The notes beneath the pieces are model-generated. The model worked only from the letters and a program-made list of their open reading frames with translations, was not told where the DNA came from and ran no database searches. A program made the position numbers and the translations under genes. Below, in pieces: positions 11,900-62,472 of a DNA stretch of 64,000 nucleotides (position 1 is its first letter; the number at the start of each line of letters is the position of its first letter). Location: NCBI GenBank assembly GCA_049999805.1, contig JBNGIO010006239.1, forward strand, positions 90,743-154,742, written 5' to 3'. This stretch comes from Folioceros fuciformis. Taxonomy: Eukaryota.

Positions 11900-14800
11900 C
11901 TCTTGCAGGATACACACATTACCATTAGCGAAGCCACACAAAAGTAGAAAAGTTATGGATGCATTCATTCCAAGCCTTAGTAGACTGCTTGAGACCATAA
12001 AGTGTTTTGAACAGCTTACACACCAAGTTCTTCTGGGTGATGTATCCCTCTAGCTTATGCATATAGATGGTCTCATGTAGCTGTCTATTAAGGAACGCAG
12101 TCCTTACGTCCATCTGGTGCATGATGAGTCAATGTTGGGCTGCATAGAACATGATGATCCGAATGGAGGTGGCCTTCATCACTAGGCTATAATGGCTGTC
12201 CGCTTGATAATCGAAACCTGTCATGTTTTTATAGATCGATAAATTGATTAACAGCGAGCACAAGGCANNNNNNNNNNAACACTTTAAACCTAATCTACGA
12301 GGTGCGAAACTATTCTATCCAACAACCTGGTACCTAACTAAAGCCTCTTGCTACCAGTCGAGCCATGTACCGAGTAATAGAGCCATCATGGTGGAGTTTA
12401 AGCTTATAGGTCCATTTATAGGTGATGACTTTCCTATCTATCATGAGGTACAGTTGTGAGTTCCCAGATATTATTATCGATAAGGGATCTATATTCAGAG
12501 TCTATTGCTACTTGCCATTCTGCAGCTTCTGGAGAATTAAGGGCTTTTCGGTATGTTTGAGGTGTACCTATGGGCTCTGTTGGTGAAACAGCTAGAGCAT
12601 GATAGGTCTGAATGAGGTTCATATGAGTGGAATCCTGGTAGGGAATAGTGTTTGGAACAGTTGATGAAGGTGGTTCAACTTGGGTGGCCGAGGATTGGGA
12701 ACTGAAAGAATATTGATAATCCTCCAACCAAGTTGGGGCCTTACAAAGTCGGGTAGACCTATGAGGGATAGGGTTAGAAGATGGATCAAAGGAAAGATCT
12801 GGGAAGAGAGGTGTAGGAATTGCTTGGACTGGAGTATCAAGTATAACTACTTGGTCGTGAATATCTGGGGTATTTGGTATAATGACTTGATCTCGAGTAT
12901 CTAGTGGAGGAATGGATACTGGCTCCCCCTTACGATCAAGGGGAACATAAAAGGAGGCAAGGTCGTCGAGCAGATCCACTGAGGAAAGGGTGGAGGAGAA
13001 CAAGCCATGTTCAGAAAACCGGACACTACGTGAGTAAACAACTTCATCTGAGGAAAGGTCAACGAGTTTGTACCCTTTAATCTCATTTGAGTAGCCAATG
13101 AAAGTAAGCTTCCAAGCCTTATCGTCCCATTTCTTGCGAATATTATCTAAGACATGTGCGAAAGCGAGGCTTTCGAAGATGCGAAGATGGGAGATACACA
13201 GGGTGAATCCATGTCAACGTTCGTAGGGAGTCGTCCGGAACAACTCCTAAGAGGGTAGGCAGTTCTTAATATAACAAGCGGTGGAAACGGCTTCAGCCCA
13301 GAAGCCTTTGGGGAGCTAGGAAAGCTTAAGTAAACGCCTAGACATCTCAAGAACTGTGCGATTATATCCCTCGGCGAAGGAGTTTTGTGAAGGAGTATGG
13401 GGAACAATGTATTGTCATAAGATGCCTTTGCTAGAACAGAAATCACGTAAGGCGTTGGTGGTATACTCGTCTGCGTTGTCAGTGTAAAGCTTACGGAGTA
13501 GGTGGCCAGTGTGGCGCTCTGCTATAGAGATATACTGAAGGAAGCAATCAAAACCTTCGCTCTTATGCCAGAGAAAAAAGATATGGCAGTAGCGGCTCCA
13601 TTCGTCTAAAAAGGTGAGAAAGTATAAATGGCCACCTAGGGAGCTGGTCGACATGGGGCCGTAGATGTCGGAGTGGACAGTCTCAAGAAGTCGTGAAGCT
13701 CGAGTTAGATGAAGATCATTGAAAGGTCTTTTATTAAATTTGCCATACTAGCATGATTCGTAGAAGAAATCCTCATCCAATTTACAATTTAAAGCATCTT
13801 TATACATATGTGTATTTGCAAGTTGACTTAAGTATTTAGGGTTGGCATGCCTAGCCCGGCAGTGCCATAGGTAGCTGGTGGATTGCGGAAGGGTCTACTC
13901 AGAAGAGTGGCTGCTAGCCTAGCTATACTATGGCAGCTCAAGTCGGTAGAGGCCGTGAAAGAGGGTGCCTTACCGATGACCTAATCATTAGGAGATAAGA
14001 AGCTGTGGAGTATGTAGAGCGTACCTGAAAACCTAATAACAAGGGAGTAATCGCTCGAGAGGAGCCGAATTGAGAGTAAGTTCTTTTTCATATCAGGCAC
14101 CTACAAAACGTTCTGGAGGTGTAGGGTTTCGATGTTATATAGCTGGAGGCTTACACCGCTAGAGCCCCTAATTGGAAGGGGACTGTCATCACCGAGCAGG
14201 ATGGTTTGGCCAGGAGTGCACAAGGAATATGTAGCGAAGATGCCTTCGGAGGAGCAAATGAGGTTTGTCGCACCGAAGTCGAGGAACTAATCTTGGTCAC
14301 CTGCTTGGATGACGGACAAGCATATCATAAGGAGTTTGTCGGTACTATCGCGATAGAGCGACGAGGTGACGGTGATATCCACGTGAGGCACATCCCGCCT
14401 AGGTTTACTGGCCTCTTTTTTCCTACATTCATGCTCGAAGTAGCCGGGGATTCTACACTAGTTGCAGAGTCCCTTATTGTTTCTTCTAAAGGCGAATTGC
14501 CGGAAACTACCGATATAGGAACCGGGTGCCATAGGGTTTGATGCTCTCCTCCCAGGTGGGGCAAATCGTGGGTTGCCCCACCTGAAGCCGCGACCGAGTG
14601 CTGCCGTAAGCACGTGTGGGCCGCTACCAATGGTGCCTAGTGATCAGGCTGAGCTAATACAGCTTGAATCTTCTTCGAGAAGGGCTCCAACAACTTCGGT
14701 AAAGGTAACGCTCTTGTGTGGCTGTCCTACAGAGACAACTTGACTAACTTATCTGAGGGTGGCATTTTGTGAACTGACGAAAGTTCGATACCTTGGCAAC

Positions 14801-23167: not shown

Positions 23168-23328
23168 TAAACAAAGCAAGACAGTTTTGTTTAGCAACAG
23201 GTGTTGTACATATTTATATAAGCTCGTGTTACAAGCATGTGAAAGGGATGGCATGGCCACGGTTTCGATTGGCAGACTGTGCCACAAGCTGAAAAGAGCC
23301 GCGTCTTCCGATGAAGACTGACGGGAAG

Positions 23329-25936
23329 ATGGTTACAGTATGGCAACCGGATCCCTTGTGGACCCAACAAGTTGGTCTGTGTACCGGAATTTTTCGAGGA
23401 TCTCCCGCTCAGCTCACATCAGTTTGTCAACCGCTGGGTAAGCTTCAGGGCTCCAGACGCAACAGTGAGAGAGCCCAGCTCTTTCACTTCCGAGAGATGT
23501 GTGGTTGGGGAAGGATCTGGAGCGATGGTGGTTGCTGGGAGCAGGATCTTCTGCGGCAGCAGTTGTTTCAGGACCTGCTATGTGGTGGGACAAGAGGCGA
23601 GATGAGAGGAGTTCCCGTTCGCCTGACTTTCCGCGTAAGGGGGCCGGCGAGGTCCTGTGGTTAAACAGAGTGTTCACGCCAGCTTGAGTTGATGAGCAGC
23701 TGGGTTCTTGGGATATGCGGGGATCATAGGGCCTTTCCTTCCAACGCGTAGGCTGAACGTGGCAGGTGTGTGGGATCTGAAGTGGGCGCAGTAACGACTG
23801 TGACGGTGAGCACGTTATGCCAGAAGTGGAAGCTTTCGGAGGCTGTTGGAGCCGTGGAATATCTGGTGCAGAGAGACTGTCCTATTGTATACTGTGCCAA
23901 AACTGTGCGCAGCTAAGAAGGATCTGGTTGTGGGGTGGACGGCTGCATAATCTCACTGTCAAACTTAGTTACGTGTCGAGTGCATAATTGGGGAACCATG
24001 TATTGCGCATGTACGTTTCTGGAGGAAGGTTAGAGGAGGGCATGAATGTGTTCATAGGGGGGTGGGGAAAACCAAATGCTTTCCTGTGGTTTTTGCATGA
24101 CATCAGCGCATCCTAAACATGGGAAACCTTATGAGACGGTACATCTGTGCCACGAGATGCGTAGGCCAGGTGCGAAGGCGGATGCTTTTTGGAAGTTTGG
24201 CCACAAGGGATGCAGTGATTTGGAATACACTTTTATCTGGGTACGCACAGCGAGGGCTCGGCCAGGAGGCGTTTTTTCTGTATGAGCAAAGAGAGCAGGA
24301 GGGCCTCATTTTGGCTGTCCAGGTTACCTTCTGAAGTTCGGTGTCAGCAGTGGTGCCTGACAGAAGGGCAGGCAACTGCACTCCCAGATTTGGATCGAGG
24401 GCAGCTTGACAATGTACTGGTGAGCAACTGCTTGGTGGACATGTCTGCCAAATGTGGCGAAATGGGAGAGGCACGAGGGGTTTTCGAAAGTTTGGCCACA
24501 AAGGATGTGGTGACATGGAATGCACTGGTTTTGGACTAACGATGTTACTTTCGCTGGACTTCTGACTGACTGTGCAAGAACTCTGGGCGCACTAAAGGGC
24601 AGGCAGCTGCACTCACAGACTGTGGAAAGAGGGCTGCTGGATGGCACACGCGTGAGCACCTGCCTTGTGGACATGTTTGCAAAATGTGGCGAACTGGAGG
24701 AGGCACGCAAGGTTTTTGACAGCTTGGCCATAAAGGATGTGACGACATGGAAAGCTCAGGTAGCGGGGTATGCACAACAAGAGCTCGGTGAAAAGGATCT
24801 TGTTTTGTATGATCAGATGGAGCAAGAGGTTGTGATTTGGCTAACGATGTTACTTTTGCTTGCCTTCTGAATGCCTGTGTCAGCACTGGTGCCCTACAGA
24901 GGGGCAGGCAGTTGCACTCACAGATTGTGGAAAGAGGACTGCTGGATCGCACACCAGTAGGCACCTGCCTTGTGGACATGTAGGCAAAATGTGGAGAACA
25001 GAATGAGGCACTCCAGGTTTTTGACAGTTAGCCCACAGAGGATGTCGTAACATGGAATGCCTTGATATGTGGGTGTGGAATTTGTGATGAAGGTTCCTAC
25101 ATGCTAGTTTGTCTTGAGGAGATGTTAGTCGCGGTTTTTCTTAATGACGCTAGATTTGTGTTTTGGTAGCATGCAGTCATCAGGTACATGAGGGTAGGAA
25201 GCGCCTTGATTCCACGCCTGAACAGCATGGCATCAAACCTACTATAAAGCATCAAACCTACTATATTATGATTGATCTTCCTGCAGAGAACATGCTATTT
25301 TCATGTGAGAGCCAAAGCAATACTGTGGGACTGAGGTGTGTGCTGAATGCCTGCACAAATCACGGAGACATAAAGTGGGCGGCATGGTGTTTCGAAGTCT
25401 TATCACACTAGAACCTCAGTAGGCGTGCGCGCATGCGCTCATGCCAATGCCCGTGTAGATGCAGGAATGTGGAACGATGTAGAAAGACTTGAAAACCAGA
25501 GAATGATTGCAGGAGCCAGAAAGAACCCTGCAGTTGCGTGCATTGAGGTGAGAAAGACGGTACATACATTTGTGGTGGGAGGAAACAGAGATGATGATCT
25601 GGCCACCAAAGTAGAGAGCATGAATGCACGTCTGAAGCAGGAGTGTGGGCAAGTACCAGAAACAACAGTGGTGTTGAAGCCAGTGGGTGAAGCAAAAGGA
25701 AGATGCCGTTCGTAGTCATGCTGAGAAGCTGGCTTTGGGGTTTGGTCTCCTGGACATCCCTAGTGACACACCTCTGCTCTGTTGGTAACGAAGAATCCAC
25801 GGATGCACAGTGATTGCCACAGTTTCACCGACATCATGTGAAGGATTGAGAACAGAGGCATTGTGTTGTTGAGAGGGATGGGTACCGTGTGCATCGATTT
25901 GCAGGTGGTTGTTGCAGCTGTGAGGGCCGACCTTGA
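23329..25936 (+). pseudogene. pseudogene paralog of the PDF-PLS-PPR-DYW:KP(GRP) gene
   Basis: Starts MVTVWQPDPLWTQQ, like the intact copy. Has one frameshifted PDF motif (WWDKRRDERSSRSPDFPRKGAGEVLWLN), PPR fragments (CLVDMFAKCGELEEAR), RKNPAVACIEV and HAEKLAL, and ends CSCEGRP-TGA at 25934-25936. Numerous frameshifts and in-frame stops. Confidence 0.92.
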
Positions 25937-26491
25937 GAAAGTCGATGACGTTCCGTCGTCATGCTCTAGGGTTTACATTATGTCAGCGTACGTACTGGCT
26001 TTGGAGAAAAAAAACTTCTTTTTTCCTGAAGAACAAGAACGCTGGCGTATCTCATGCCTGCCTGGACATCAGCATGTAGATATACCGTGTCCTAAGCCGT
26101 CTCAGAGCCTACCGTAGAGATGTCCGGTCATGAACTCTAAGAATCCTACCTGATGGCCCCAGACTCGATTTTCCTTAGGAGGGCCTAAGTACGTGTGAAT
26201 GATTCAGTCATGCTTGAACTGGCCTTGTTTCCATACAAGGGAACGAGCTAGTCTCGAGGGACGCGCAATTGGGCAATTGTGGTGCATGCTGTATATCCAT
26301 GCATGAATGTTCACGACGTCACAAGGAACTGAGGCTGCTCCTGAGGAGGATCCTCTGTACGTGGGGCTTCATCATGTTGTAACTCTTGGCAGTCATGGGA
26401 AACTACATCCACCTTCCCAAAGAAGATGGATTCTCAGCACCCGCATTCCACAGTTCACCTTTGCAGCCAGACTCTGGCCCCTTGGCCAATC

Positions 26492-29400
26492 TCACGGTCG
26501 ACCCTCACAGCTGCAACACCCATCTACGAATCGATGCACACGGTATCCATCCCTCACAACAATGTCTCTCTTTTCAATCCTTGACATGATCTCTGTCGAA
26601 CTGTGGCAGTCACTGCACATGCGGAGGTTCTTCGTTACTAGCAGAGGTGTCCCATCTGGAGTGTTCAAGAGACCGAACGCCAGAGCTAGCTTCTCAGCAT
26701 GCCCGCAGAGAGAATCTTCCTTTTCCTTCTCGGACAATGGCTTCAACACCAATTTGGTGTGTGGTACGTGGCCCCCTTCTTGTTTCAGACGTGCATTCGT
26801 GATCTCTACCTTCGGCACGAGATCATCCTTCTTTTCTCCCACCACAAATGTATGTACCTGCCTTTTCACCTCAATGCTCGCCACTGCAGGTTTCTTCTTG
26901 GCTCCTGCTAGCATCCTCTGTGTTTCTATCCTATCTACATCGGTCCACCTACCTGCATCTGCATAGGCATTGGCCATGAGCACATATGCGGATGCATTCT
27001 GAGGCTCTAATGTAACGAGACTCTCAAAACACTTTCTAGCCCTCTCTACATCCCCGTGACTTTTGCAGGCATTCAGCAAAGACGTCAAACCCACAACATT
27101 GCTTTGGCTCTCACATGACAACAGCATCTTCTCTGCCTCATCTAAACGGCCGGCACGCCCTAGCAGATCAATCATGCAAGTATAATGCTCCAGAGTGGGT
27201 TTGATACCATGCTGTTCCACCATGGAATTGAAATGCGCGCGGCCCTCGTCCACCAGTCCCATACGACTGCATGCTGCTAAAATGCAAGTGTAAATAGCAT
27301 CATCAGGCTGAATACCTGCAGCTAACATCTCCTCAAAGTAATCTGATGCCTTGTGGACATCGTCCGAAGTACCACAACCAGCGATGAGGGCCGTCCAAGT
27401 CATGACATTCTTCATGGGCAAGCTGTTGAAAACCCCCCGTGCAGCTTCCAGTTCGCCACATTTTGCATACATGTCCACTAGGCAGGTGCCCACAACTACG
27501 TTATGCAGCTGTCCGCTTTCAACAATCTGTGAGTGCAGCTGCCTGCCCGTCTGTAAGGCACCAACGCTTGCACATGCCTTGAGAAGGCAAGCAAAAGTAA
27601 CATGGTCAGCCACAAGCAGGCCCTCCTGCTCCATTTGCCCATACAGTAGAAGCGCCTCATGGCCTAGCCCTTGCTGTGCATACCCTGCAATCAGCGCCGT
27701 CCATGCCACCACGTCCTTTGTGGTCGAGCTGTCAAAAACCTGACGTGCTTCGTCCAGTTCACCACATTTTGCATACATGTCCACCAGGCAGGTCCCCAAC
27801 ACTAAGTTATCTAGCTGCCCTCTTTCCACAATCTGCGAGTGCAGCTGCCTGCCCTTCAATAAAGCACAGCCGCTTGCACAGGCCTTCAGAAGGGAAACAA
27901 AAGTGACATGGTCAGGCTCAATCAGGCTGTCCTGCTCCATTTGTTCATGAAGAACAAGCGCCTCTTGACAGAGCCCATGATTTACATACCCAGCAATCAG
28001 AGCATTCCATGTCACCACATTCTTCGTGGTCAAGTTGTCAAAAACATATCGTGCCTTGCTCAGTTCGCCACACTTTGCATACATGTCCACCAGGCAGGCA
28101 CCAACAAATAAGTCAAGAGGAATACCACTGCGCAACACATCAGCGTGCACTTTTCGGCCAGATTCCAAGTCTGAAGCTAATGCACAAGCTTGAAGGGCAG
28201 CGACAAAGACGTGCGCATCTGCTTTCGCATCTGACCCACGCATCTCATGGTACAGTCGTATGGCCTCCTTAGGCTTCCCATGTTTGGCATGTGCCGAGAT
28301 AATGGAAAACCACATGAAAGCATCTGACTTCCCTACCCTGGTGAACACATCCATGGCCTCGTGTAGCATTCCTCCACTTGCATACATGCGAAGAACATGG
28401 TTTCCCAAGTACGTATCGGACTCATACCCAAGTTCGACAGCCAGATCATGAACTCGTTGACCTAGAACCACATCCTTGTCAACTGTGCACAGTTTTAGCA
28501 CAGCACAGAGTAGAGACTTGGGAACAGGATAATCTGTCTGCGCCAGACTCTCCAGGGCTCCAACAGCTTCGGTACTTTTCCCTTGCTCACAAAACGTGCT
28601 CACGGCTACAGCCGTGACGACGCCCATTCCCGATCCTGCTCTCTTGCGGGGTTCTTCAGCCTTGAATTTGGAAGGAAAGGAACCACGAGCCATCCGCATG
28701 TCCAAAGAACCGAGCTGCTCATCCACCCAATCTGGCTTGAACATGCTGTTTAACCACAGGACCTCGCCGGACCCCTTACGCCGGAAGTCTGGCAACTGGG
28801 AGTTCTCTCGTCTGTTATCCCACCACACGGTAGGGTCCAAAAACAAATCTTGCCACAAGGCCTCCTGCTCCTGGCGACGACGATCGCTGGAAAATTCCAA
28901 CCCGCCTAGACACTTTGGAAGCGGAAGTGCTCGGTTCTGCACACTCCTGGGGCTGAAACCTTGATCGCTAGCCAGAAGTTGACTCCCCAGTGTCGGGTGA
29001 GAAATGGGACGGTCTATTTGCAGCATAGATTCCAGTCCAACAGCCTCAGTAAGCTTCCCATGATGACATAACGTACCTACCGTTACGCCGGATTCAGGCT
29101 TATGCTTGGAAGGAGAGGCACCAGAACCCATCTGCATATCTAAGGCATCGAGCTGCTCATCCACCCAATCTGGCTTGCACATGCTATTTAACCACAGGAC
29201 TTCGCCGGACCCCTTACGCCGGAAGTCAGGCGAACGGGAGCTCTTCTTATCTCGTCTGTTGTCCCACCACATGGTAGGGTCGACAAAAAATTGTTGCCAC
29301 AAGCGCTCCTGCTCTTGGCGACGACCATCGCTGGGGACTCCTTCCCCGCCCACGCATTTGCCCGGCCGTGGAAGTGCAGGGTTCCTTACCGTACTGCACC

Positions 29401-29527
29401 TGGAGGCTTGGTTGCTTTCCAGCAGCTGACTACCTAAGGTGAGGTGAGCGGGTCCTCCTCCTCGAATCCCTGTAAACCCACCAAGTTGTTGGGTCCACAA
29501 AGGGTCAGCTTGCCATACTGTGGCCAT
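26492..29527 (-). CDS. PLS-class PPR RNA-editing factor with DYW:KP (GRP-type) domain and two N-terminal OSB-type PDF motifs
   Basis: Uninterrupted 1011-aa ORF. PDF-like motifs at aa 76-126 and 224-272; about 15 P/L/S repeats ending P2-L2-S2; E1-E2; then KKKPAVASIEV, HAEKLA, NLRMCSDCH and CSCEGRP. Confidence 0.95.
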   Translation of the reverse strand: MATVWQADPLWTQQLGGFTGIRGGGPAHLTLGSQLLESNQASRCSTVRNPALPRPGKCVGGEGVPSDGRRQEQERLWQQFFVDPTMWWDNRRDKKSSRSPDFRRKGSGEVLWLNSMCKPDWVDEQLDALDMQMGSGASPSKHKPESGVTVGTLCHHGKLTEAVGLESMLQIDRPISHPTLGSQLLASDQGFSPRSVQNRALPLPKCLGGLEFSSDRRRQEQEALWQDLFLDPTVWWDNRRENSQLPDFRRKGSGEVLWLNSMFKPDWVDEQLGSLDMRMARGSFPSKFKAEEPRKRAGSGMGVVTAVAVSTFCEQGKSTEAVGALESLAQTDYPVPKSLLCAVLKLCTVDKDVVLGQRVHDLAVELGYESDTYLGNHVLRMYASGGMLHEAMDVFTRVGKSDAFMWFSIISAHAKHGKPKEAIRLYHEMRGSDAKADAHVFVAALQACALASDLESGRKVHADVLRSGIPLDLFVGACLVDMYAKCGELSKARYVFDNLTTKNVVTWNALIAGYVNHGLCQEALVLHEQMEQDSLIEPDHVTFVSLLKACASGCALLKGRQLHSQIVERGQLDNLVLGTCLVDMYAKCGELDEARQVFDSSTTKDVVAWTALIAGYAQQGLGHEALLLYGQMEQEGLLVADHVTFACLLKACASVGALQTGRQLHSQIVESGQLHNVVVGTCLVDMYAKCGELEAARGVFNSLPMKNVMTWTALIAGCGTSDDVHKASDYFEEMLAAGIQPDDAIYTCILAACSRMGLVDEGRAHFNSMVEQHGIKPTLEHYTCMIDLLGRAGRLDEAEKMLLSCESQSNVVGLTSLLNACKSHGDVERARKCFESLVTLEPQNASAYVLMANAYADAGRWTDVDRIETQRMLAGAKKKPAVASIEVKRQVHTFVVGEKKDDLVPKVEITNARLKQEGGHVPHTKLVLKPLSEKEKEDSLCGHAEKLALAFGLLNTPDGTPLLVTKNLRMCSDCHSSTEIMSRIEKRDIVVRDGYRVHRFVDGCCSCEGRP

Positions 29528-30299
29528 CTAACAGGGACCCTTCTCAAGCAGATGAGGAGCACAACAAACTATCTAGTCGGTGGACGGACGCCTAGATTCT
29601 CCGCACCCAGGAATGCCACCCTGTAGTCAAGGAAATCATGGCTCCGTGTGGCAATCACAAGGCAAATCATAGCTGCTGCCTTCCCGGTATCTGCATCACC
29701 AAGGTATCAATCCCCCTAGCAACTTGGGACCCTCTTCCAGCATTGTAATGGAGGGCCGAGGACGAGAAGTTACAATCTTCAGTAGCTCCCCGTGCTGCAG
29801 GTCAAGAGGCTTCCTTCACCACCGATGGAATTGCTTTGTTCTCTGGCGATGAAATTAGTATGGTTAAGCCTACTTCATACATTTGTTGCATTGCTGATGT
29901 TCCTGAAATCATAATATCTAATTATGTTTTAAGTTTATAAATTTGATTAAGTCTATTTCGTTGATTTTAATCACAAGACTGCATACGCGGAGCGGCGATT
30001 CAGGTTGGATCCAAATGAAGGCTCGGGTAGTCGGAAGAACGTGGCTCAAATCTTTATAGGTCACATGANNNNNNNNNNCTCGGGTAGTCGGAAGAACGTG
30101 GCTCAAATCTTTATAGGTCACATGAAGTTATTTCAAAATGCACCACATCAAAACTCTAATTACACTTAGCAAGGCGGGAGCCATGATTCAGCTTGGATCT
30201 AAATGCAAGCTCAAGTAGGATCCAAATGCAATCTCAGGTAGTCAAAAGAACCTGGCTCAAAAATTTACATGAAGTTAGTTCAAGGTGCACTACATCACA

Positions 30300-34850: not shown

Positions 34851-36747
34851 AGGGGGGGTATTCCATCACGGTGGTGCGTCCAGGTGGGGCGGTGGCTCGT
34901 ACCCCTATGATGGCTAAGTAAAGAGTGCTATGGTGACTCTAATTCGTAATGACGTTGCACTTTAGAATATGTCTTTTATACTATTGTACATCAAAAAATA
35001 TGTTTTGTATGGATTTATTCTTAATAAGCCAAATGGATACCACATTTATAAAAAATTCATAATTAAGAAATTTTTTCTCGAACAAGTACTTACATGGGGT
35101 CCCTTAAGAAAATATGCCCTTTTTTATAGGGTAGGTGTAAGGACCTTTTTAAATATTAAAAATATAAGAAAATATGATCATTTTATGCCAAATAAGAACA
35201 CTTTTGCATAAACTTCTTTCTTCTTTCTTGTGAGAATACAAACATGAGATCTCCAAGCCAAATAGGGGGGAAAGATGAAGGTAATTCACTTGTTCTAACA
35301 AACTCATGAATGGTACATTAGGGCTATCAATACCAGCACAAAAAGGAGTTATCCTAAGAAGTGGAAAAAGAGTCCTCATTTTGGAAATTGATGTCGTTTC
35401 AGCCCAAAAGTGCCTTTCAAGTTCGTTAAAACACTTGTAAATAAGGCATAAAATAGACGTTCTTGTAGAAGCGGAAACTTCCAAACCTGCATAACTTGCA
35501 CCTTCTACATCTAGGAGCATGCAAAAATCGGACTACATAATGTTGAAATTCTTAAAAAAAACAAAACCTATCATCTTTTAGTTTTTTGGGTGTAAGAAGG
35601 CCGTAACGTCACGCAAGTAGACTTCCAACGATAGTACAATTAACATAGTAGAGACAACTAAGGATGGGGACTAATCTAAGAGAGTGGGAGAAACAGGGTA
35701 AGTGGACGAGCACCGCCCATCTTAAAAATCCCACCACTACCGTAACAACAATAATTGATTGTCTCACATAAGTATCACATTTAGTGTTAAGTGAACAAAT
35801 CTTTGAAGAGTAAAACACAAGTTAATATTGTGCGATGCATTCAAAGCAAAAAGAAACAACTTGGATGTTTGACCTAAACACTATTGTGTAGAACTTTATA
35901 CTGCTAAATACATACTCTTTTTTTCTCCTAAAGCATTAGATCTTTGTGTTATGCAAATACTTAATGGTTTTGTTTCGAGTTGAACAAAACACAAGTAAGC
36001 AATGAAACAAGTTTTATACCCACTAAGCAAGGTGCTTGACCGTCAAGATGCTTGGCCATTGATATGCTATACAAATCCCTCTCCATGCAAAAACTCTCTT
36101 TCCCTTAAAAGGTGAGGAGAGGAGAAATGCATGACATAAATGTTATACTTGTTTTATGTTCCTCAAATTCAACCTTTAAGAGAACACATTAATACTAGCA
36201 TTGGCTAGAATTAGGGTAGGTAGAACCTTTCCAACTCATGACAACCATCACTTAAGACCTGAACCCTTTGAAAGACACTTGGAGTCACATTGGAAGGTTA
36301 TGCTAAGCCACTATTGCAAGGATCATATACTAACCCTAGTTCACATAAACAATTAAAAAGAGCCATAATGATCCTCATCGAATGCAAAAATGCCATTGGA
36401 AGGGGGAGACTTAGGCCTTTAAGTGAGTATATCCCAGAAGTGATCCCTTTACATTGTTCCTTATGCCTACTTAAAGTGCGGTCTGGTCTATGTGGCATTC
36501 ATCGACTAAAAACCCAAAGGTGCTTTGCAAGGAAGTTTATGGNNNNNNNNNNNNNNNNNNNNNNNNNNNNNNNNNNNNNNNNNNNNNNNNNNNNNNNNNN
36601 NNNNNNNNNNNNNNNNNNNNNNNNNNNNNNNNNNNNNNNNNNAGACGTCCTTCAAGATGGATGAAAGGAATCTTAAAACAAATCTTTATAATTTACTTAA
36701 AGTTATTTCAAGGTACACCACAACAAAACTCTAATTGAATATTGGAT

Positions 36748-37443: not shown

Positions 37444-39085
37444 ACTAATTCTTGTCTTCCTGGCTTTATAACCTACAACCGTGTATTACACTCGTCGAAG
37501 GCCAAGGATATGGTGCTCAATTTTTTTTAANNNNNNNNNNATTTTTTTTAAGTTATGCACATTGTGTAGACACCAAGTTCCAAGGACAACAATTAGGAAT
37601 ATTTTCCCTCGCATACACCAAGTTTCAAGGATGGCTCTTAGGAATATTTGCCCCTACAAAGACATGCAAACAATCGTAAGCCAAGGATGACAAGTGAAAA
37701 CATTTGTCCCTATAGAGATATGCAAATAATCATAACCTAAGGGTAACCATTAGGAGTAGTTTTCCAACAAAGACATGCAAACAATCATAACCCAAGGACA
37801 ACTATTCTTGCATGAAAATAGAAGCATGTCTACGCGCCTAGGTATGAGTACACTAGCATGCCAACACCCTTGGCCCTTGGAAAATCCTATCTACTCAAAA
37901 AATGAGGAGGTTATTTCCAAGGGGAATAACCTAAAAAGAGCCAAATCCCAACAAGAGCAAACCCTAAACCCTAAACTGCTTCAAGTATCATTCTTGAAAG
38001 TACTTACTACTCCCATAAATTATATTGTGATGGAAAAGGCTTATTGGTGCCAATGACGTCATGTACACTAGTGGGTCTTCTAAAGATGGCATTGACCAAA
38101 GACCTTATCGAAAGGATGGATGGGTATGTTTTGCCTAAGTAAAAGTAAGACTTTAGGGCTTACTTTTTAGAATGGCTTTCTTAGGACACGACGGGTGGTT
38201 TTGGCTTTTGATTAGGTGGTGTATTATCATTCTATATGGTTGGAGTTGTTTTTGGGAAAGCATATCTTGCAGTGTGTGCCCAAGCATTGGCACGCTGTTA
38301 AAAGAAGACTATTATTGAGAAAAGAGGGAGAACTCATTCTTGTGACTATCATAGACCTTGTACACTCCTTCACAAGCCTCGAAATTTTTTTTTGTCCATG
38401 ATTCCAGGGATCAAACTTTAAGTACGGGACTTCGTTGGAGGGTGACTCGGCAAGATCGATGGGACGCTTCTAATTGCTGTCTCCATCTGTCCAAGGCGTT
38501 GTGAGACTCGGTACTTTTTCGCTTTCCTCCCTTGTAGCACTAACCAGTTGGCAGTGACATTACTTATATGAGCGTCCCATTCCGTCACATTTTGAAATAT
38601 GGGTTGACGAGAAAGAAATACAAGACGTGGGTTCAAAGGGGACTGTATCTGTACAATATTTGAAGTAATGGGGTGATAAATGAAATGAGATCTGGTGTAC
38701 GGCGTGGAAGGCGGGACATGGGGGACTAGGACGTGCTGTTGGAAATGGAGCGTGAAATATCAGTGGCCTCGGGCCATGACTGCGACGACTATGGCCACCG
38801 TGAAGACTCGACATTTATGCATTCGAGGGTGAAGTCTCGCGGTCCTGCCTGCCCGTTTCCGAATCTTCCTGCCGGTTGCCAATCTGTGGGAAGCAGCACG
38901 GCTGGTGTTTGACAATCTGCTGACCTCGACCAGCTCGGGAACCGGCCATGGGATCCAAATTGCATGACCCAGCGGAAGCCATGGAGCAGGGGCAGGTGTC
39001 GGGGTAGTCGGGAACTGCAGGGGCTGGCGCCGGGCGGCGGATCGTGAAGCTGTGGAAAGCGGAGGGAAAGGGGAGCCCAGGCGAG

Positions 39086-43849: not shown

Positions 43850-46800
43850 TTAAAAAAGAGATGAAGAAATTCCATTTACTCCAAAAATAAAGAGGAATAA
43901 CCCAAATATGGGCAAAGGGCAAAAAGGGTACTAATGCTTTCAAATATCATTCTCAAAACTACTTACTATTCCCAAAATAGCGTGATGCAAAATAACAAAA
44001 GACCTACTTACCTCTATTATTGAAGAAGTCGCTTGACCTGCACTTGTTGCTGTTTTAAAGGCCGTATTGACCAATGCTTTTTACAAAGCAATAGATATGA
44101 AAGAAGGCCACCACTAAGGAAAAAGGAAGAATGCTATTCCTACAGCTATAATACACCTTAGTGCACTCCTTGATGAACCTTGAAAAGTCCTTGCCAATAG
44201 TCCCATGGGTTTCAAGAGCAAGGGAGATAAAAAAAACATTTCTAAATGAAACTTTATTGTGCAAAGTATATGGACACTACCTGCATGAAAGAAACCCACA
44301 TTCCCGAGCTATTAAGAACATGACATCCCGGGGGACTCCATCATAAGTGGCAATGCAGTGCCCCCCCCGAAAGGACAACATACCGCATAGGATCTTGTGA
44401 CGACAATGGACTCCCTACAACTACATGTAGAGAGAGAAAAAAAAGAGGTGGTCTAAACCTAAGTGGAATCTCATTGCGGTGGCGAAAGTTGTTAGTGCAT
44501 TTCGAAATGCATGGATGTAGGGTCGAGCTAAAAGTCAAGAGCTCATGAACAAGAGTGAATACGAGCATTCCTTTATATGAACAAGAGTGAATACGGGCAT
44601 TCCTTTATATTCCNNNNNNNNNNATACGGGCATTCCTTTATATTCCTTTATATGAACAAGAGTGAATACGAGCCCGAGAAGACTATGAGTCCGAGCGAAG
44701 GGCTCTTAGTGGTTAGGCGTGTTGCTTTTGTACGAGGGAGGTCTAAAGATTCCTCAACCCTTTTCTAGAAAGGGAGGTGAAAGAGATGGAGTCTCAACAT
44801 CTGAAATAAAATCTTCAAGAATTGGGGAATCTTGGAGTAGAAATGATGAGACCAAAATTGGAGTTCAGAGAGCCGAGCTACTAACGAAGGTAGGGTAGAG
44901 GTCTCTATGGCCAAAAGGCTAGCACCTCATAGACGATTGGCAAGGAAGCTTGCTTTCGAGCTAAATCACCGATGACACACTTGAAGGTGCTGGGACCTAT
45001 GATGTCCCTAAGCACTTGCATAACTTGATTGTTGAACTTTGTACGACTTGATAATAAAGCTAGAGAAGGTGCAACAATTATGTTGAGGTAACATGGTTGT
45101 CATGCAAAGCAAGAAGAAAAAATATCAAATGCCTGAGAATCACCGATCAGTAAGAGGTCCAGCATATGAGCCAAATCTTCATCCAAAGCTGCAGTCACAA
45201 ACTTGTAAACAAAATCAGCAGGTCCTATAGAAACCTCCAAGACTTAAAGTCCCTAGAAGAAGGCAAATATGAGTGTCATCAGCCACGGATGGAAAAAGCA
45301 ATTCCAAAATGCCAAGGCAATAGAAGACAACACTTGAAAATGCACCATGGCAAAAAGAGCACCTTCTCGCAAATAACCTTGCCTTGTGTTTGTTACTAAA
45401 TAAAAAAACTGAGACGCTTTCAATGGCATGGTCATATTGGTAGTAGAGCTTGGATAGTGAGCCGCAGAAGAAGTAAACAAATGTGATGAGACAAGCCAAT
45501 TAGCTTCCTACACTCTTGAGCTTCGAGAAGGCAACTCTAGAAATGATGTTCATACCATTCTCAATATCAATTTGCAAAGCCACCCAAGTAAGGATGTGAC
45601 CCGAGGGGCGGCCTAGAGACTGAGGGTAGTAGATTCGCACCCTTTTAGGATAGCAATTCCAAATTGTTACAGAATGGTTAATCTACCCGTATCCCTATAT
45701 GTAATCTAGTTATCGTCTAGAGGGTTAGGTCACTACGAAAGGGTGTACCTCTTCATGAACGGACGCCCTGCACCACCTTAAAACACACTTTGAGTACCTT
45801 TTGTTTAACTAATTATCGAACAACATATCTTGCGTAGCATCATGGGTTAGATGCATGCTTCACAATCCTACTACTAGGATTTTCTCACAAATTGATGGGG
45901 TGCAAGTTGTGCTTGGATGTGCTTAAGAAGTTGGATCGCAATGCTTCGGCTCATGAGGTATAAAAACACCTCCTCCTTAGCAATAGTGCACACTCTTAAG
46001 GTGGGTTTTTCCAACGCTAGCAACCTATTAGCCTCCAAAGCTTGAGAGTTTTGGTTAGAAATCTCACTTGTGACCACGGTAATTGCTGACATAAAAAGCT
46101 TTGAAAAACCACTTGAAGGAAACTCAGGCGAAAAAGGATCTAAAAATTGATAATAAACTACGCCAAACAAACCCCTTGAAGAAAGCTACATGACATTAGA
46201 GAGAGCACAACCAAAAACCCCTCAATCCAAGCAAGAAGGCTCCTTGATCAAGAAGCCTGTGGTACAATGTCATGAGGTTCTATGTGAAGCTAAAAGTGCA
46301 GCAATGGTGTCCCCACTTGTAGATGCTACCGATTTGGGCACAGTGCTATAGTAGTCTAAGCATATTCACCATCCTTGCCCAACATAAGATATTGCTTGAG
46401 TTGCACATTAAATGGGTCATGACAGACCTTATCAACCTTAGCAGTCTCAATCGAGATTTTTCCGCTAGTAGATCCTTCTTCTGAAGAGCTTGCTAATCTC
46501 CAAATCGAAAATGGTGAAGTCAAGAGGCCACCTCACTATGTCCTAAAGGACCACCCCTAGAGCCCCGAAGGCACTACGTTAGGAGAAATAGAAACAAAGT
46601 CTAGGTGTTCTTATCCCTTGGGTCTCGAGCAAGGCAATCTAAGAAAAGACGATAAGCAAGGTAAACATCATTCTGTAGGTGCCTAAGAAGACGTCGTAAG
46701 ATTCGCAGTTGGCTCAGAAGAAGAAGCAAGTTGCACTTGTGTCACTGAAGTGCTCATATCGAAGTGCTTATGAGCAATGTGGCATTTCACCCTCTTCACC
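43850..46800 (-). mobile_element. degenerate RLE-type non-LTR retrotransposon (CRE/R2-like), copy A
   Basis: RT-proximal LLALEKPT.RV.TIA.EEVF..LMSR..QLAPHQF; C-terminal FISLALETHGTIGKDF; 3' end catctctttttt shared with copies B and C. Confidence 0.65.
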
Positions 46801-47619: not shown

Positions 47620-48480
47620 AAAACATTCCTACACCACTCTATTGTGTTATTCCTATGTCACGCATATGCCCACTCCTACACTGTTTAACCATATAGCTCT
47701 TAGCTACATCACGCTTATGCCCACTCCTACACTATTTAACCATATCGCTCTTACATCTCTCAATTGCAAAGGCCTTCTACATTGTTGAATCATTTCGCTC
47801 TTCCACTACACAATCATATCTCCTACATTGCTTATTCCACTCGTATCACCCCTACATCACTTCTACGCCCATCACTTTTACACCACTCATACACCTATCA
47901 TCCCTACATCACTCCTACGCTCATCACTTTTACACTTCTCATACACCTATCACTCCACACACCTCTCTATGTGCCCATTACTGCACACCACACAATTATA
48001 CAACCCCTATATCACTAATACCACTCACACTCACTGCTCGTACCACCCCTACATCACCCCATACCACTTGTACATCCATTGCTCCACACCACTCTCTATC
48101 TACCCACCCATTACTACATACCACTCGTGCTCTCTATGTACCCATTACTCCATACTGCTCCTACACCCATCAATCCTCTCTACGTACCCATTACTCCATA
48201 CTGCTCCTACACCATCAATCCATACTACGCTCTGTACACTCATCTCTCCACACCGCTCTCTACATATATTGTTCCACACGACTCTCTACACATATTGTTC
48301 CACACCACTCTCTACATATATTGGTTCNNNNNNNNNNCACCACTCTCTACATATATTGGTTCCACACCACTCTCTACACATATTATTCCACACCACTCTC
48401 TACATATATTGTTCCACACTACTCTCTACACATATTGTTCCATTTGGTTGATCACTCCACACGGTTCTATTTGGTTGAGT
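47620..48480. repeat. C/A/T-rich degenerate tandem repeat grading into a 25-26-bp unit
   Basis: Repeated caccactctctacatatattgttcca; includes an N gap. Confidence 0.8.
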
Positions 48481-51249: not shown

Positions 51250-51920
51250 GGGCCCTAGTGGTGGGAGGTGGTCTACTAGTCATAATGTTGAAGGTGAAGG
51301 TCAAATGATTAGAAGCAATAGTTGTCTTTCTAGTGGTCGGAGGTTGCCTACTAGTCATAACGTTGAAGGTGAAGGCCAAATGATTAGAAGCAATAGTTGT
51401 CTTTCTATTATTGAAAAAGATATGGAGTTATTTATTAGTAGTCGTTTGTCTAGTGTGCTAGAATTAGAAGTGGTTTGTCTTTATGCAAGGATTACAAGTG
51501 GAAGTCGTTTGTCCGGTATGCAAGGATTAGAAGTGGTTTGTCTTTATGCAGGGATTAGAAGTGGAAGTTGTTTGCCTTTCATGCAAGTAGTTTGTCTGGT
51601 ATGCAAGGATTAGAAGTAGTAGAAGTGGTTTGTCTGATATGCAAGGNNNNNNNNNNAGAAGTGGTTTGTCTGGTATGCAAGGATTAGAAGTGGTAGAAGT
51701 GGTAGAAGTGGTTTATCCAGTATGCAAAGATTAGAAGTGGTTTGTCTGATATGCAAGGAGTAGAAGTGGTTTGTCTTTCATGCAAGGAGTAGAAGTGGTT
51801 TGTCTTCCATGCAAGGATTAGAAGTGGTCTATCTTCCATTCAAGGATTAAAAGAGACTTGTCTTCCATACAAGGATAAGAAGTGGTATGTCTTCCATTCA
51901 AGGATTAAAAGTCATCTATC
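51250..51920. repeat. tandem repeat array (29-bp unit, preceded by a duplication of about 80 bp)
   Basis: Repeated atgcaaggattagaagtggtttgtct(ggt/ttc). Confidence 0.9.
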
Positions 51921-58089: not shown

Positions 58090-59245
58090 GCTCTTGGCCC
58101 GGCCTCACATTTAGGAGTTTCAAATTGCACCAGTAACTTTCACAATTGCAACAAGATTCCGCCTGGGTTTGGCCCACACTTTGGCTATTTTCCTCTCTAC
58201 ATGCATTGGAGGGGCTACTATCATGGACTCATGGTCCCATCCGGCATGTCGTGCCATCGAGGAACAGAGCATTGTCACCCATTATATAATTCAGGATGTT
58301 ATGTTCTTTATGGCTAGAAAGTGTGGTTTCCTTCCCTACAGGTAGTGTTTGTATACTTTGCGCAACGTGATTTCATTTCCAGCTAACCTTTTTTAATAAG
58401 GGGGAATAGGTTTGTGTGGTTGATGTGGTTGTTACGGATACTACTAGGCACTCGATTTGCAATTACATTATCATAAACCCTTCTTGATGTACAAGAGTGG
58501 GTTGTGCGATTTCCAAATTCTGTACATATTCTCCCTTGCAAGATGGACATGTTTTCATCCCCTTGCTCGTGAAACCCCATGGGGCCCTGGGGCTATGGGC
58601 AATAACTTTTTGGTGTCTTCAAGGAGTGCACAAAGGTATATCATAGTCATAGAAATGAGGTTCTTTTTATGTCTTCGGTCATGGCCTTCGTTTGACAATG
58701 CATATCTATCACATTTCAAAGGGTGTTGGGCGATGTGATTTTCTTAACAGCATATCTATCACATTTCAAAGGGTGTTGGGCGATGTGATTTTCTTAACAN
58801 NNNNNNNNNNNNNNNNNNNNNNNNNNNNNNNNNNNNNNNNNNNNNNNNNNNNNNNNNNNNNNNNNNNNNNNNNNNNNNNNNNNNNNNNNNNNNNNNNNNT
58901 ATCTATCACATTTCAAAGGGTGTTGGGCGATGTGATTTTCTTAACAACATATCTATCACATTTCAAAGGGTGTTGGGCGATGTGATTTTCTTAACAGCAT
59001 ATCTATCGCATTTCAAAGGGTGTTGGGCGATATGATTTTCTTAACAGCGACAAGTATTAAGTTGCTTCTTTGGCAATGGTTGTAGGTAGGCCTTTTGTTA
59101 TTTCGCATTACGATATTTTGGGAGCTATAGGAAATTTTGGGAAAGATATTCAAGGAGGCTAGTCCCCCCTTCTGCTTTTGACCCTCTTTGCGATATTCCT
59201 CCTCGTCTTTTGAATAGATGAAAATTTTCATCTCTTTTTTCAATA
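58090..59245 (+). mobile_element. RLE-type non-LTR retrotransposon 3' fragment, copy B
   Basis: FTIATRFRLGLAH, DVVVTD, FHPLARETPWG; similar to copies A and C and ends catctctttttt; interrupted by a 50-bp array and a gap. Confidence 0.6.
58699..59048. repeat. 50-bp tandem repeat spanning an assembly gap
   Basis: Near-identical units of gcatatctatcacatttcaaagggtgttgggcgatgtgattttcttaaca on both sides of the N run. Confidence 0.85.
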
Positions 59246-59719: not shown

Positions 59720-62472
59720 CACAACAACCAGATTACCTTGCTAGAATTGTTGCACCTTCTCCAGTTTTCTTATCAAGTGTCAAGAAGTTTGATAATCAAG
59801 TTATGCAGGCTCTTAGAGACATCATAGGTCTCGGCACCTTTGAGTGCGCCGTTGGTGATTTGNNNNNNNNNNNNNNNNNNNNNNNNNNNNNNNNNNNNNN
59901 NNNNNNNNNNNNNNNNNNNNNNNNNNNNNNNNNNNNNNNNNNNNNNNNNNNNNNNNNNNNNNGAAGAGCGCTTTCCCTTTACATGTATTTCTTAGGCAAG
60001 CAAGGGACTCTTTACCTTTGAAGGCTCGTGAGGCTCTATCTTCTTTCACCTCCTTTTCTAGGGAAGGATTAAAGGGTCCTCAGGCTTCCCTCCTGGAAAA
60101 GCAATATGGCCAAGCATTAAGAGCCTTTCTTTCAAACTCATCCATCCCCAGATTTTATCAGGCTTGTATTCACTCTTATTCAGGTAAAGGAGCGGGCTTT
60201 TGGCTCAACCTTGCATCTTGGTGTTTCAAATCACAATAGCAACTTTCGCCGCCGCGATGAGATTTCGCTTCGATTTGGCCTTCCCCTCAACTTTTTGGCT
60301 CTCTGCATGTAGTTGTGGGGTTACCTTTGTTAACACAAGGTCCCATGTGTTACATTGTTCTGTCAAAGGGGCATCGCATTGCCAGGCATGATGCAGTTCG
60401 GGAAGTCATGTTCTCAATGGCTAAGGAATGTGGGTTTCTTTGGTATAGGGAGCATCCATATACTTTGCGTAATTGAGTTTTACTTTGAGCTGACCTTTTT
60501 TCACCAGGGAGGAACATGTATGTGTCGTTGATGTGGTTGTTACGAATCCCACTAGGGATTCGATTTGCGAGCAAGTTGTCATCAATCCCCTTGAATGGGC
60601 AGCAGAGGGTTGTGCAAGCGTTAAAGTCCATAAATATTCTCCCCTACAAGACCGGCATATTTTCATCCCCCTTACTATTGAGACTCATAGGGCCATTGGC
60701 AAGGACTTTTTAAGGTTCACTAAGGAGAGTGCAAAGGTTTACCAAAGTTATAGGAATTGTGTTCTTCCTCTTTCCTTTGTGGCGGTCTTCTTTCAACAAC
60801 ACGTATTCATAACTTTGCAAAGAGCATTTTTTCACGAAAAAAAATTCTGATTAAGTTGGCAGATGCCTCCCACTACAATACAAAGGGAAAATCCTACTAA
60901 TGTATGTACAAAAATCAAGCACCAGAAGAGAGGGGGAGAACTGGCCTTGAGTCCAAAACTCAAGACAAGACTCTCAGAGAGTGCTCCCCTAAACTATGGT
61001 ACCCTCGAACTGCCGAAGCCACTTATACTCACACCTCAAGGTCACCCACGGACTTTAAGGCTCACCGCCCCCAGGGGCACGAATGATTCCAACACGTATC
61101 TTTGCCAGGTGCTAGGAATGCCATCCTCCAGTCTTTCCGCTTAAATTGCTTCCGACGAAATTGCTCCAAAGCTTCTGCTGCAATGAACGAATGCTCCCAT
61201 ATGCGCCACAACAAAACTTTTGATGAACCTGAATCCTGTCCTCCATAGATCACCGTGGACCAGTTGACCGAGAGATGGAAAAGGCAAGAAGACCACAATA
61301 AGCCCCACCATTGTGTTTTAAGGAGAGGTTTGCCCGAAGATGCGTCCAGCCCAAATAAGGCTGATTGTGTCGTGATCTTGAGGTTAGCACCAAGAAAAAT
61401 CAAACAGAGCCACTTGCCAACCTCCATCCAAATCTCTTGGGCAAAGCTGCAATGATAGAACATGTGTTGGCTCTTGTTCGGGGCCCTAGCGGTGCACAGT
61501 CGACACACATCCTTGCTCGTTGTAGCTAAAAGCCCATCCCATCGATCCGCATTAGGCAAACACGCTTGAGAAAAACACCAAACCATAGACCTGACCTTGG
61601 GGGGGATTCCTGTGGACTTCCATAGAAGTTTGAAGGCTTCCCTTTGTCGCCTTCCAGCTAATTGCAATCGGGGAGCCATCGGTTGTCTTTGTTTGATTTT
61701 CTGCGCTCGCACTAACCAAAGGAACAAGTCCGCCGTTGGGAATTTGAAGAAAGATCGAGGGGTAGCTTGCACCCTAGATGCCTGGGCCACTTGTAGAGAT
61801 ATGGTCTGAAGGTCAGGGCCTAATTCTCGCCTAGTCGGAACTAGCACTGAATCTTTGCTTTGTCGGAGGTTTATGGCCCAATTGGGCATTCACTTGGGCT
61901 GCACCATCGCCCTGCCCGAATGGACTTAACGAGGACAGTGGTAGCCCGCAATTCCCCTCCTCGGGCTTCCCCATCATCCCTGCCCTGGTCTTCCAAAAGC
62001 CCATCCGGCGACATGACCTTGAACGACTTCAGCGTCTCATTGCCATCCGATCTCGCAAGCCAGACCGCCCTATCCAGTTCTATGTGAGATCCTGGCCCTT
62101 GTAGCTCCTTTGTAACTAGCACAGGTCCTCCCTAAAAAAACGTTCTTGCTGGCGTTGTTCTCATGCTCGTTGAACCCCTAGTCTCCTCAAATACCTAGTC
62201 GCCTCATTGTTAGCACACATCAATTTGACCGCCGCATCTTTGCAAAGAGCATTGGCCAATGCAGTTTTTAGATTAGTAACAAGCGCAGGTCAAGCGGCTT
62301 CTTTACCACCGCTGGTAAGTAGGCCTTTTGTTATTCCACATCATAACATTTTATGAGCCGTAGGTAGTTTTTTAGAATGATGTTCGAAGGGGCTAGTACC
62401 CCTTTTAGCCTTAGGCTTGCTCAGGTTGCTCCTTCAATCTTTAGAGTAGATGGGACTTTCCATCTCTTTTTT
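59720..62472 (+). mobile_element. RLE-type non-LTR retrotransposon, copy C, interrupted by an L1 insertion
   Basis: SGKGAGFWLN, FAAAMRFRF, zinc knuckle CSCG...HVLHC followed by RHDAVREV, DVVVTNP, IFIPLTIETHRAIG. TLQRA/LANAV resumes after the insertion. Confidence 0.7.
60829..62237 (-). mobile_element. 5'-truncated L1-clade LINE (zf-RVT region) with 16-bp TSD
   Basis: ORF 61062-61889 contains LWKSTGIPPKVRSMVW..LPNADR..CRLC..SQHMFYHCSFAQEIW (zf-RVT). The direct repeat ctttgcaaagagcatt lies at 60813-60828 and 62238-62253. Confidence 0.88.

Follow-up and report, generated by a model that had tools for sequence, protein, structure and literature searches.

The locus analysed here lies in a window of 64,000 nucleotides (nt) of the Folioceros fuciformis genome (contig JBNGIO010006239.1, positions 90,743 to 154,742 of the forward strand), whose own numbering is used below. 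Positions 26492..29527 on the reverse strand form a single uninterrupted open reading frame (ORF) of 1011 codons plus stop, the extent of which is unchanged when it is read from stop to stop; the first ATG thus sits directly behind a stop codon. From its N terminus, the protein encoded consists of a presumed organelle presequence, two PDF motifs of the type found in the organellar single-stranded DNA (ssDNA)-binding proteins OSB1-4, a PLS-type pentatricopeptide repeat (PPR) array, an E motif, and a DYW:KP domain ending in GRP. PPR-DYW editors are treated as a presequence followed by a sequence-reading repeat tract and a deaminase, and the PPR-DYW:KP class is linked to U-to-C editing. The gene is intact and free of introns, and belongs to the nuclear genome of a hornwort-type plant. 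Its presumed presequence (residues 1-60, 29347..29527) contains 5 Arg and Lys, 2 Asp and Glu, and 9 Ser and Thr.

The PPR array covers about residues 330-823 (27059..28540), in which Pfam recognises nine PPR stretches (PPR 1.8e-63, PPR_2 5.3e-61, and PPR_1 2.3e-41), and is followed by the E motif (residues 824-886, 26870..27058; Pfam E_motif 2.3e-16). The Pfam DYW_deaminase family matches residues 919-1009 (6.8e-33), and this part also matches solved DYW domains at 2.3e-37 by sequence comparison. Counted back from the C terminus, a 133-amino acid (aa) DYW domain (residues 879-1011, 26495..26893) begins at a KP pair (residues 879-880), which aligns one step ahead of the ...CSWIEV box in a PG-type structure. 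Within the domain, HAE occupies positions 65-67, position 88 is Lys, and position 92 is Met; CSDCH (CxDCH) is also present, and the protein terminates with the triplet GRP. Here and below, statements from the literature refer to passages of the papers cited. In the DYW:KP subclass, a Lys-Pro pair replaces Pro-Gly at the start of the domain, the HxE site contains Ala, Lys88 is essential, and residue 92 is Met where PG domains have Val (PMC11845758, PMC9478123). The last triplets are variable, the hornwort variants being GRP and DRH (PMC9478123, PMC11845758). The sequence features of the PPR-DYW:KP GRP subgroup are found in this ORF, i.e. a PLS-PPR array leading through an E motif to a DYW domain with the KP pair, HAE/CxxC, K88, M92, and GRP. 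Judged by these hallmarks, the enzyme part is a complete hornwort GRP-type DYW:KP factor, which indicates that the DNA is from a hornwort nuclear genome. A preliminary description of this DNA had proposed an in-frame fusion to a PPR-DYW:KP editor, and the intact PLS-E-DYW:KP hallmarks bear this out.

The same description had placed two motifs of ∼50 aa before the repeats, at nt ∼29302-29150 and ∼28858-28712, and named them OSB-type PDF motifs. These positions proved exact. The two stretches (residues 76-126, 51 aa, and residues 224-272, 49 aa) are 444 nt (148 aa) apart and free of stops in translation. The PDF motif is a sequence of ∼50 residues with a conserved Pro-Asp-Phe and flanking Trp, Asp, and Arg (PMC6963530, PMC4166229). 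Pfam finds no family at E ≤ 10 in the N-terminal 320 aa or in either motif alone; as Pfam includes no model for PDF, this result is uninformative on homology. Pfam also finds no SSB family, either in the complete protein or in its first 320 aa. Lacking an OB fold, the protein is not an OSB protein, merely a carrier of the OSB motif.

A profile built from the two motifs of the window and from P0002 (a hypothetical protein of 383 aa from the green alga Astrephomene, in which the PDF motif occurs four times and an OB fold is absent) was searched against a library of 1,835,955,588 cluster representatives. It matched 878 proteins at E ≤ 0.001, 316 at ≤1e-10, and 33 at ≤1e-30, and the best 150 were studied. 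As assessed with a local OB-fold profile, for which six SSB regions supported by Pfam served as the seed, an SSB-like domain is present in 86 of 151 proteins (P0001 and the best 150 of the 878 matches). Pfam SSB is matched at E ≤ 0.01 by six of nine typical OSB-like proteins among them, three of which exceed the curated cut-off. P0044 is named "protein OSB1, mitochondrial-like [Populus nigra]" (Pfam SSB 22.4 bits, E 1.3e-4, below the 26-bit cut-off), and the cluster of P0140 includes a member named OSB1 of Vigna mungo. Since the library-search profile had grown to 197 positions dominated by the algal P0002, homology was re-tested with a separate, OSB-only profile, made from 137 near-full-length PDF motifs of 86 OB-fold proteins and excluding both the ORF protein and P0002. 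This profile matches residues 72-134 with 79.1 bits (7.5e-27) and residues 220-280 with 65.2 bits (1.7e-22), whereas the top score among 1000 shuffles of residues 1-330 was 6.5 bits. In the six-frame translation of the window (1565 segments), the PDF profile matches only this ORF and a remnant in a neighbouring pseudogene (23469-23684, 41.5 bits). When the core of the motif is defined as the 13 columns conserved in at least 85% of the 137 OSB-type motifs, all 13 core residues are kept in motif 1 (residues 71-137, 29117..29317) and 12 of 13 in motif 2 (residues 219-283, 28679..28873). These results establish the homology of both motifs to the OSB PDF motif. The profile of OSB motifs that the preliminary description had proposed as a check thus significantly matches both motifs of this protein, and its naming of the motifs stands.

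Word-indexed protein searches added few relatives. With the N-terminal 320 aa there was one match (P0002) among 4606 candidates. With the 69-aa motif and lengths set to "longer", there were no matches among nine candidates, and the search of region 60-300 of the whole protein returned P0013 and P0135 only. The word index is too coarse for the motif. ESM Atlas gave no usable match.

The two PDF motifs belong to larger units. As seen in a DNA alignment and in comparisons of protein and codons, residues 28-175 (unit 1, 29003..29446) and residues 176-337 (unit 2, 28517..29002, with a 13-residue insertion) align over their full length, with 82% mean column identity at the DNA level. Each unit runs from a pre-motif stretch through the PDF motif and a linker into the start of a first PPR-like helix. 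By this alignment, the two copies are the product of a recent in-frame tandem duplication of ∼444 nt, corresponding to one unit of ∼148 residues. Between copies, the codons of the PDF motif are identical in 39 cases, and differ by 7 synonymous and 12 non-synonymous changes. The corresponding counts are 14 identical, 10 synonymous, and 18 non-synonymous for flank 1, and 15, 10, and 20 for flank 2. With fewer non-synonymous changes in the motifs than in the flanks, these counts fit constraint on both copies since the duplication.

A paralog lies tail-to-tail with the PDF-PPR gene, 560 bp away (23293..25950, forward strand). As assessed by tblastn, the list of ORFs, and the PDF profile, it is a pseudogene, the pieces of which are split over all three frames (1, 2, and 3) and contain stops. 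It begins, like the intact ORF, with MxTVWQxDPLWTQQ, contains the single PDF remnant mentioned above, and retains KP-type DYW remnants near 25374-25933. A frame-broken paralog this close indicates that the gene family decays locally, and the intact ORF could in principle be an artefact or a dead gene itself, in which an upstream PDF fragment reads by chance into a PPR gene. Against this, its 1011 codons are stop-free with every catalytic and motif hallmark intact, and an identical domain order occurs in independent species (see below). This explanation is largely refuted, and we consider it very improbable.

The window contains nine runs of N, 360 bases in total, which are assembly gaps (12268-12277, 30069-30078, 36543-36642, 37531-37540, 44614-44623, 48328-48337, 51647-51656, 58800-58899, and 59863-59962). 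One of them lies ∼540 bp upstream of the start codon of the PDF-PPR gene. In three sequencing runs from three other organisms (X2, X4, and X20), contigs that are 90-95% alike cover the PDF cores at 29187-29330 and 28757-28873. They stack on these cores and on the PPR motifs alike, and hardly on the linkers, the values being summed contig depths and not counts. This hints that the PDF-coding sequence is multi-copy in relatives.

The architecture is not unique to this gene: it recurs in fern proteins and in P0013 and P0135. Among the best 150 matches of the library search, seven match the PPR-DYW part at E ≤ 1e-3 (P0135, P0013, P0150, P0098, P0102, P0067, and P0148). Pfam PPR repeats were confirmed in six of these, i.e. 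all but P0148, a 250-aa transcript fragment that stops early in the PPR array and matches the PPR part weakly. P0098 and P0067 are from Adiantum capillus-veneris, P0150/P0153 from Ceratopteris richardii, and P0102 and P0148 are transcript ORFs of Pteridium aquilinum that stop within the PPR array. As two Pteridium transcript ORFs carry PDF and PPR together, the fusion is transcribed as one frame in this fern. All these fern proteins share with the F. fuciformis protein a short presequence, one or two PDF motifs, and a PLS-PPR array, and they are already in public databases, annotated as hypothetical or PPR proteins. Unlike the F. fuciformis protein, the full-length P0098, P0067, and P0150/P0153 have no DYW domain: P0098 and P0150/P0153 end shortly after an E1 motif with no DYW domain called, and in P0067 neither a DYW domain nor an E motif was called. 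P0013, which has three PDF motifs, also ends shortly after E1 with no DYW called. The DYW-less fern proteins and P0013 may represent a genuine PLS-E subfamily, or their gene models may have been cut short. In P0135, E and DYW domains with a KP pair and a GRP end are present, and the PDF motif is decayed, with 10 of 13 core residues. The supposed tie of the PDF motifs to DYW:KP is thus weakened by the fern members and P0013, which are without DYW, and an enrichment in KP proteins is not established.

The decayed motif of P0135 bears on the possibility that the PDF region lies outside the working enzyme, either removed with the presequence or skipped by an internal start, and is a slowly decaying relic. 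In the F. fuciformis protein, the region sits directly behind the presumed presequence, Met residues are present downstream of PDF motif 2, and the N terminus is not a textbook transit peptide, all of which would suit a relic. A relic is harder to reconcile with core residues that are intact in both copies, with non-synonymous changes that are fewer in the motif codons than in those of the flanks, and with a motif kept both in ferns and in this hornwort-type protein and lying inside the Pteridium transcript ORFs. We regard this possibility as improbable.

The PDF motifs that precede PPR arrays differ from those of OSB proteins. The signature KP.WVD is found in 10 of 12 PPR-linked motifs, compared with 1 of 137 OSB-type motifs and 3 of 124 other motifs, and in one of the latter three, in P0036, it is out of register. 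In a tree of 273 motifs, a 12-tip clade supported at 0.855 unites 10 of the 12 PPR-linked motifs. The remaining two tips are the short ORFs P0091 and P0127, which end soon after the motif. All the fern PDF-PLS-PPR proteins but P0067 belong to this clade, and both motifs of P0067 fall outside it, possibly reflecting a second capture event. Because the PPR-linked branch also precedes PLS-PPR arrays in ferns, the fusion is old and retained, not an accident of one gene. The tree favours a single early event, older than the divergence of ferns and hornworts, in which a PLS-type PPR gene acquired a PDF motif. Other unusual contexts were seen among the PDF proteins. The P0005 cluster contains multi-copy PDF motif proteins named from the dinoflagellate Effrenium voratum, P0045 of Coptis chinensis (1526 aa) has three PDF motifs followed by a kinesin motor domain, and P0003 of Kingdonia uniflora (1160 aa) has 13 PDF stretches and a weak SSB match. 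P0045 and P0003 may represent additional PDF fusions, or else gene models that were merged.

An AlphaFold2 model of the 69-residue motif was made from a 32-row alignment, and has a mean predicted local distance difference test (pLDDT) score of 92.5 for PDF motif 1. The predicted fold consists of a helix (2-16), two short strands (21-23 and 36-38), and a second helix (56-68). A Foldseek search of this model against the PDB gave no matches at E ≤ 0.001 (best E 6.7), and VIA-align against 48,161 chains gave none at Z ≥ 5 (best Z 4.2). By sequence, phmmer of the motif against the PDB returned nothing under E 0.86, and a further profile matched the PDB only through the PPR and SSB parts of its whole-protein rows.

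What might two PDF motifs contribute to an editing factor? In OSB proteins the PDF motifs are responsible for ssDNA binding, and for AtOSB1 the PDF motif alone suffices (PMC4166229, PMC6963530). Nine of the 12 PPR-linked motifs retain all 13 core residues, and this preservation of the full core aromatic/basic set makes an accessory single-strand-binding module the best reading. We therefore favour, with a probability of about 60%, the view that the protein is a GRP-type DYW:KP factor in which a duplicated pair of PDF motifs, from a distinct old branch of the family, serves as an accessory, sequence-independent grip on single strands; its binding, localisation, and effect on editing are what we infer from the comparisons above. 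In such a protein, the PDF motifs would grip single-stranded nucleic acid without sequence preference, beside (5' of) the tract read by the PPR array. This grip would raise the affinity for the target transcript, or would keep or render the RNA near the PPR site unpaired. Equally, the PDF motifs might dock the enzyme on ssDNA at the transcribing nucleoid. Base conversion would be the work of the DYW:KP domain, which has its Lys88.

A competing explanation is that PPR-linked PDF motifs have changed job, and now form a protein-protein or oligomerisation module, or an anchor to the nucleoid or ssDNA only, leaving the target RNA untouched. A signature and a clade of their own fit a shifted function, and so does the behaviour of OSB proteins, which favour ssDNA over RNA, as does the report that AtOSB2 is a tetramer (PMC6963530). 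However, the presence of all 13 OSB core residues in 9 of 12 PPR-linked motifs argues for retention of the ancestral binding surface, and no result obtained here indicates a partner protein. A change of job therefore appears unlikely, though it deserves to be taken seriously.

Several points weigh against an accessory single-strand grip. OSB1 and OSB2 prefer ssDNA over double-stranded DNA or RNA (PMC4166229), so that binding of RNA by a PDF motif is not the default expectation. The model of the motif has no structural analogue, and the structure thus offers no mechanistic lead. The decay of the motif in P0135, the closest relative, suggests that the PDF module can be dispensable, and the fern members and P0013 show no DYW domain, which points to a module that is not specifically tied to U-to-C chemistry. 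The PPR-linked clade was drawn from 68 columns with moderate support, and its motifs were gathered with a seed profile that included those of this protein. Finally, transcription, translation, and the mature N terminus of the gene are presumed, and no RNA run is listed for it. The sole near-identical sequencing run, X1, provides identical contigs at a depth of about 7 over the ORF and both flanks; as the flanks are covered as well as the ORF, this run is probably DNA and was not counted as expression evidence. Weighing these points, we still consider accessory single-strand binding to be probably the function of the PDF motifs in this protein.

A bolder extension can be envisaged, in which the PDF-PPR fusion is an ancient, as yet undescribed class of land-plant editing factors that predates the split between hornworts and ferns, its PDF motif having been captured once. 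Where partners of the MORF type are absent from a lineage, a KP.WVD clamp would assume their helper role; it could also position U-to-C editors at the nucleoid, either on the nascent RNA or on the displaced strand, and action on ssDNA as well as on RNA might be possible. U-to-C editing occurs in three plant groups, two of which are the ferns and the hornworts. As a whole, this extension seems to us doubtful.

How does this protein compare with known systems? With the hornwort GRP-type DYW:KP factors, the natural proteins on which the designer KP2/KP3 U-to-C editors are based (PMC9478123), it shares the PLS-PPR, E, and 133-aa DYW hallmarks, and it differs by the two PDF motifs inserted between the presequence and the first PPR motif. 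An N-terminal nucleic-acid-binding module on DYW:KP proteins is not mentioned in the passages covered of PMC9478123 and PMC11845758. With OSB1-4 it shares the ∼50-aa PDF motif, but it has no SSB-like OB fold, its PDF motifs are N-terminal to another domain instead of C-terminal as in OSB, and they carry the KP.WVD that is rare in OSB motifs. A third comparison is with the helpers MORF, ORRM, and OZ and with RRM-PPR and RRM-DYW fusions (PMC13386178), in which a general module is likewise joined to, or stands beside, a PPR editor; here, in contrast, the module is PDF, for which there is no Pfam model. Hornwort editosomes have been modelled as PPR and ORRM proteins only (PMC13386178), which leaves room for a built-in helper.

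We found no description of a PDF-PPR fusion in the literature on PDF or OSB in combination with PPR, DYW, hornwort, or fern, in agreement with the novelty suspected in the preliminary description; this search covered neither some key papers nor supplements. Likewise, the literature on the "PDF motif", supplements excluded, deals mostly with OSB proteins and includes nothing on PPR proteins. In the covered passages of the survey of editing-factor fusions (PMC13386178), the supplementary tables of which lie outside this coverage, there is none on PDF, OSB, or single-strand binding. From these passages, the survey appears to be based on a domain library, and Pfam has no PDF model.

Taken together, these findings show an architecture that is conserved beyond this gene, for which the sequence comparisons make an accessory single-strand-binding function plausible; a link specific to DYW:KP is not established. 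Editing helper functions have been assigned to separate proteins, namely MORF, ORRM, and OZ, and a conserved, constrained PDF module preceding the repeats would add a new component to the editing machinery found in nature. To our knowledge, the PDF motif has so far been known from OSB proteins only, and the PPR context would give it a second setting and a handle on what the motif recognises. Designer GRP-type KP editors reach 22-26% editing (PMC9478123). These editors are inefficient, and a natural single-strand-binding module is a candidate to improve them, which could also alter their substrate range.

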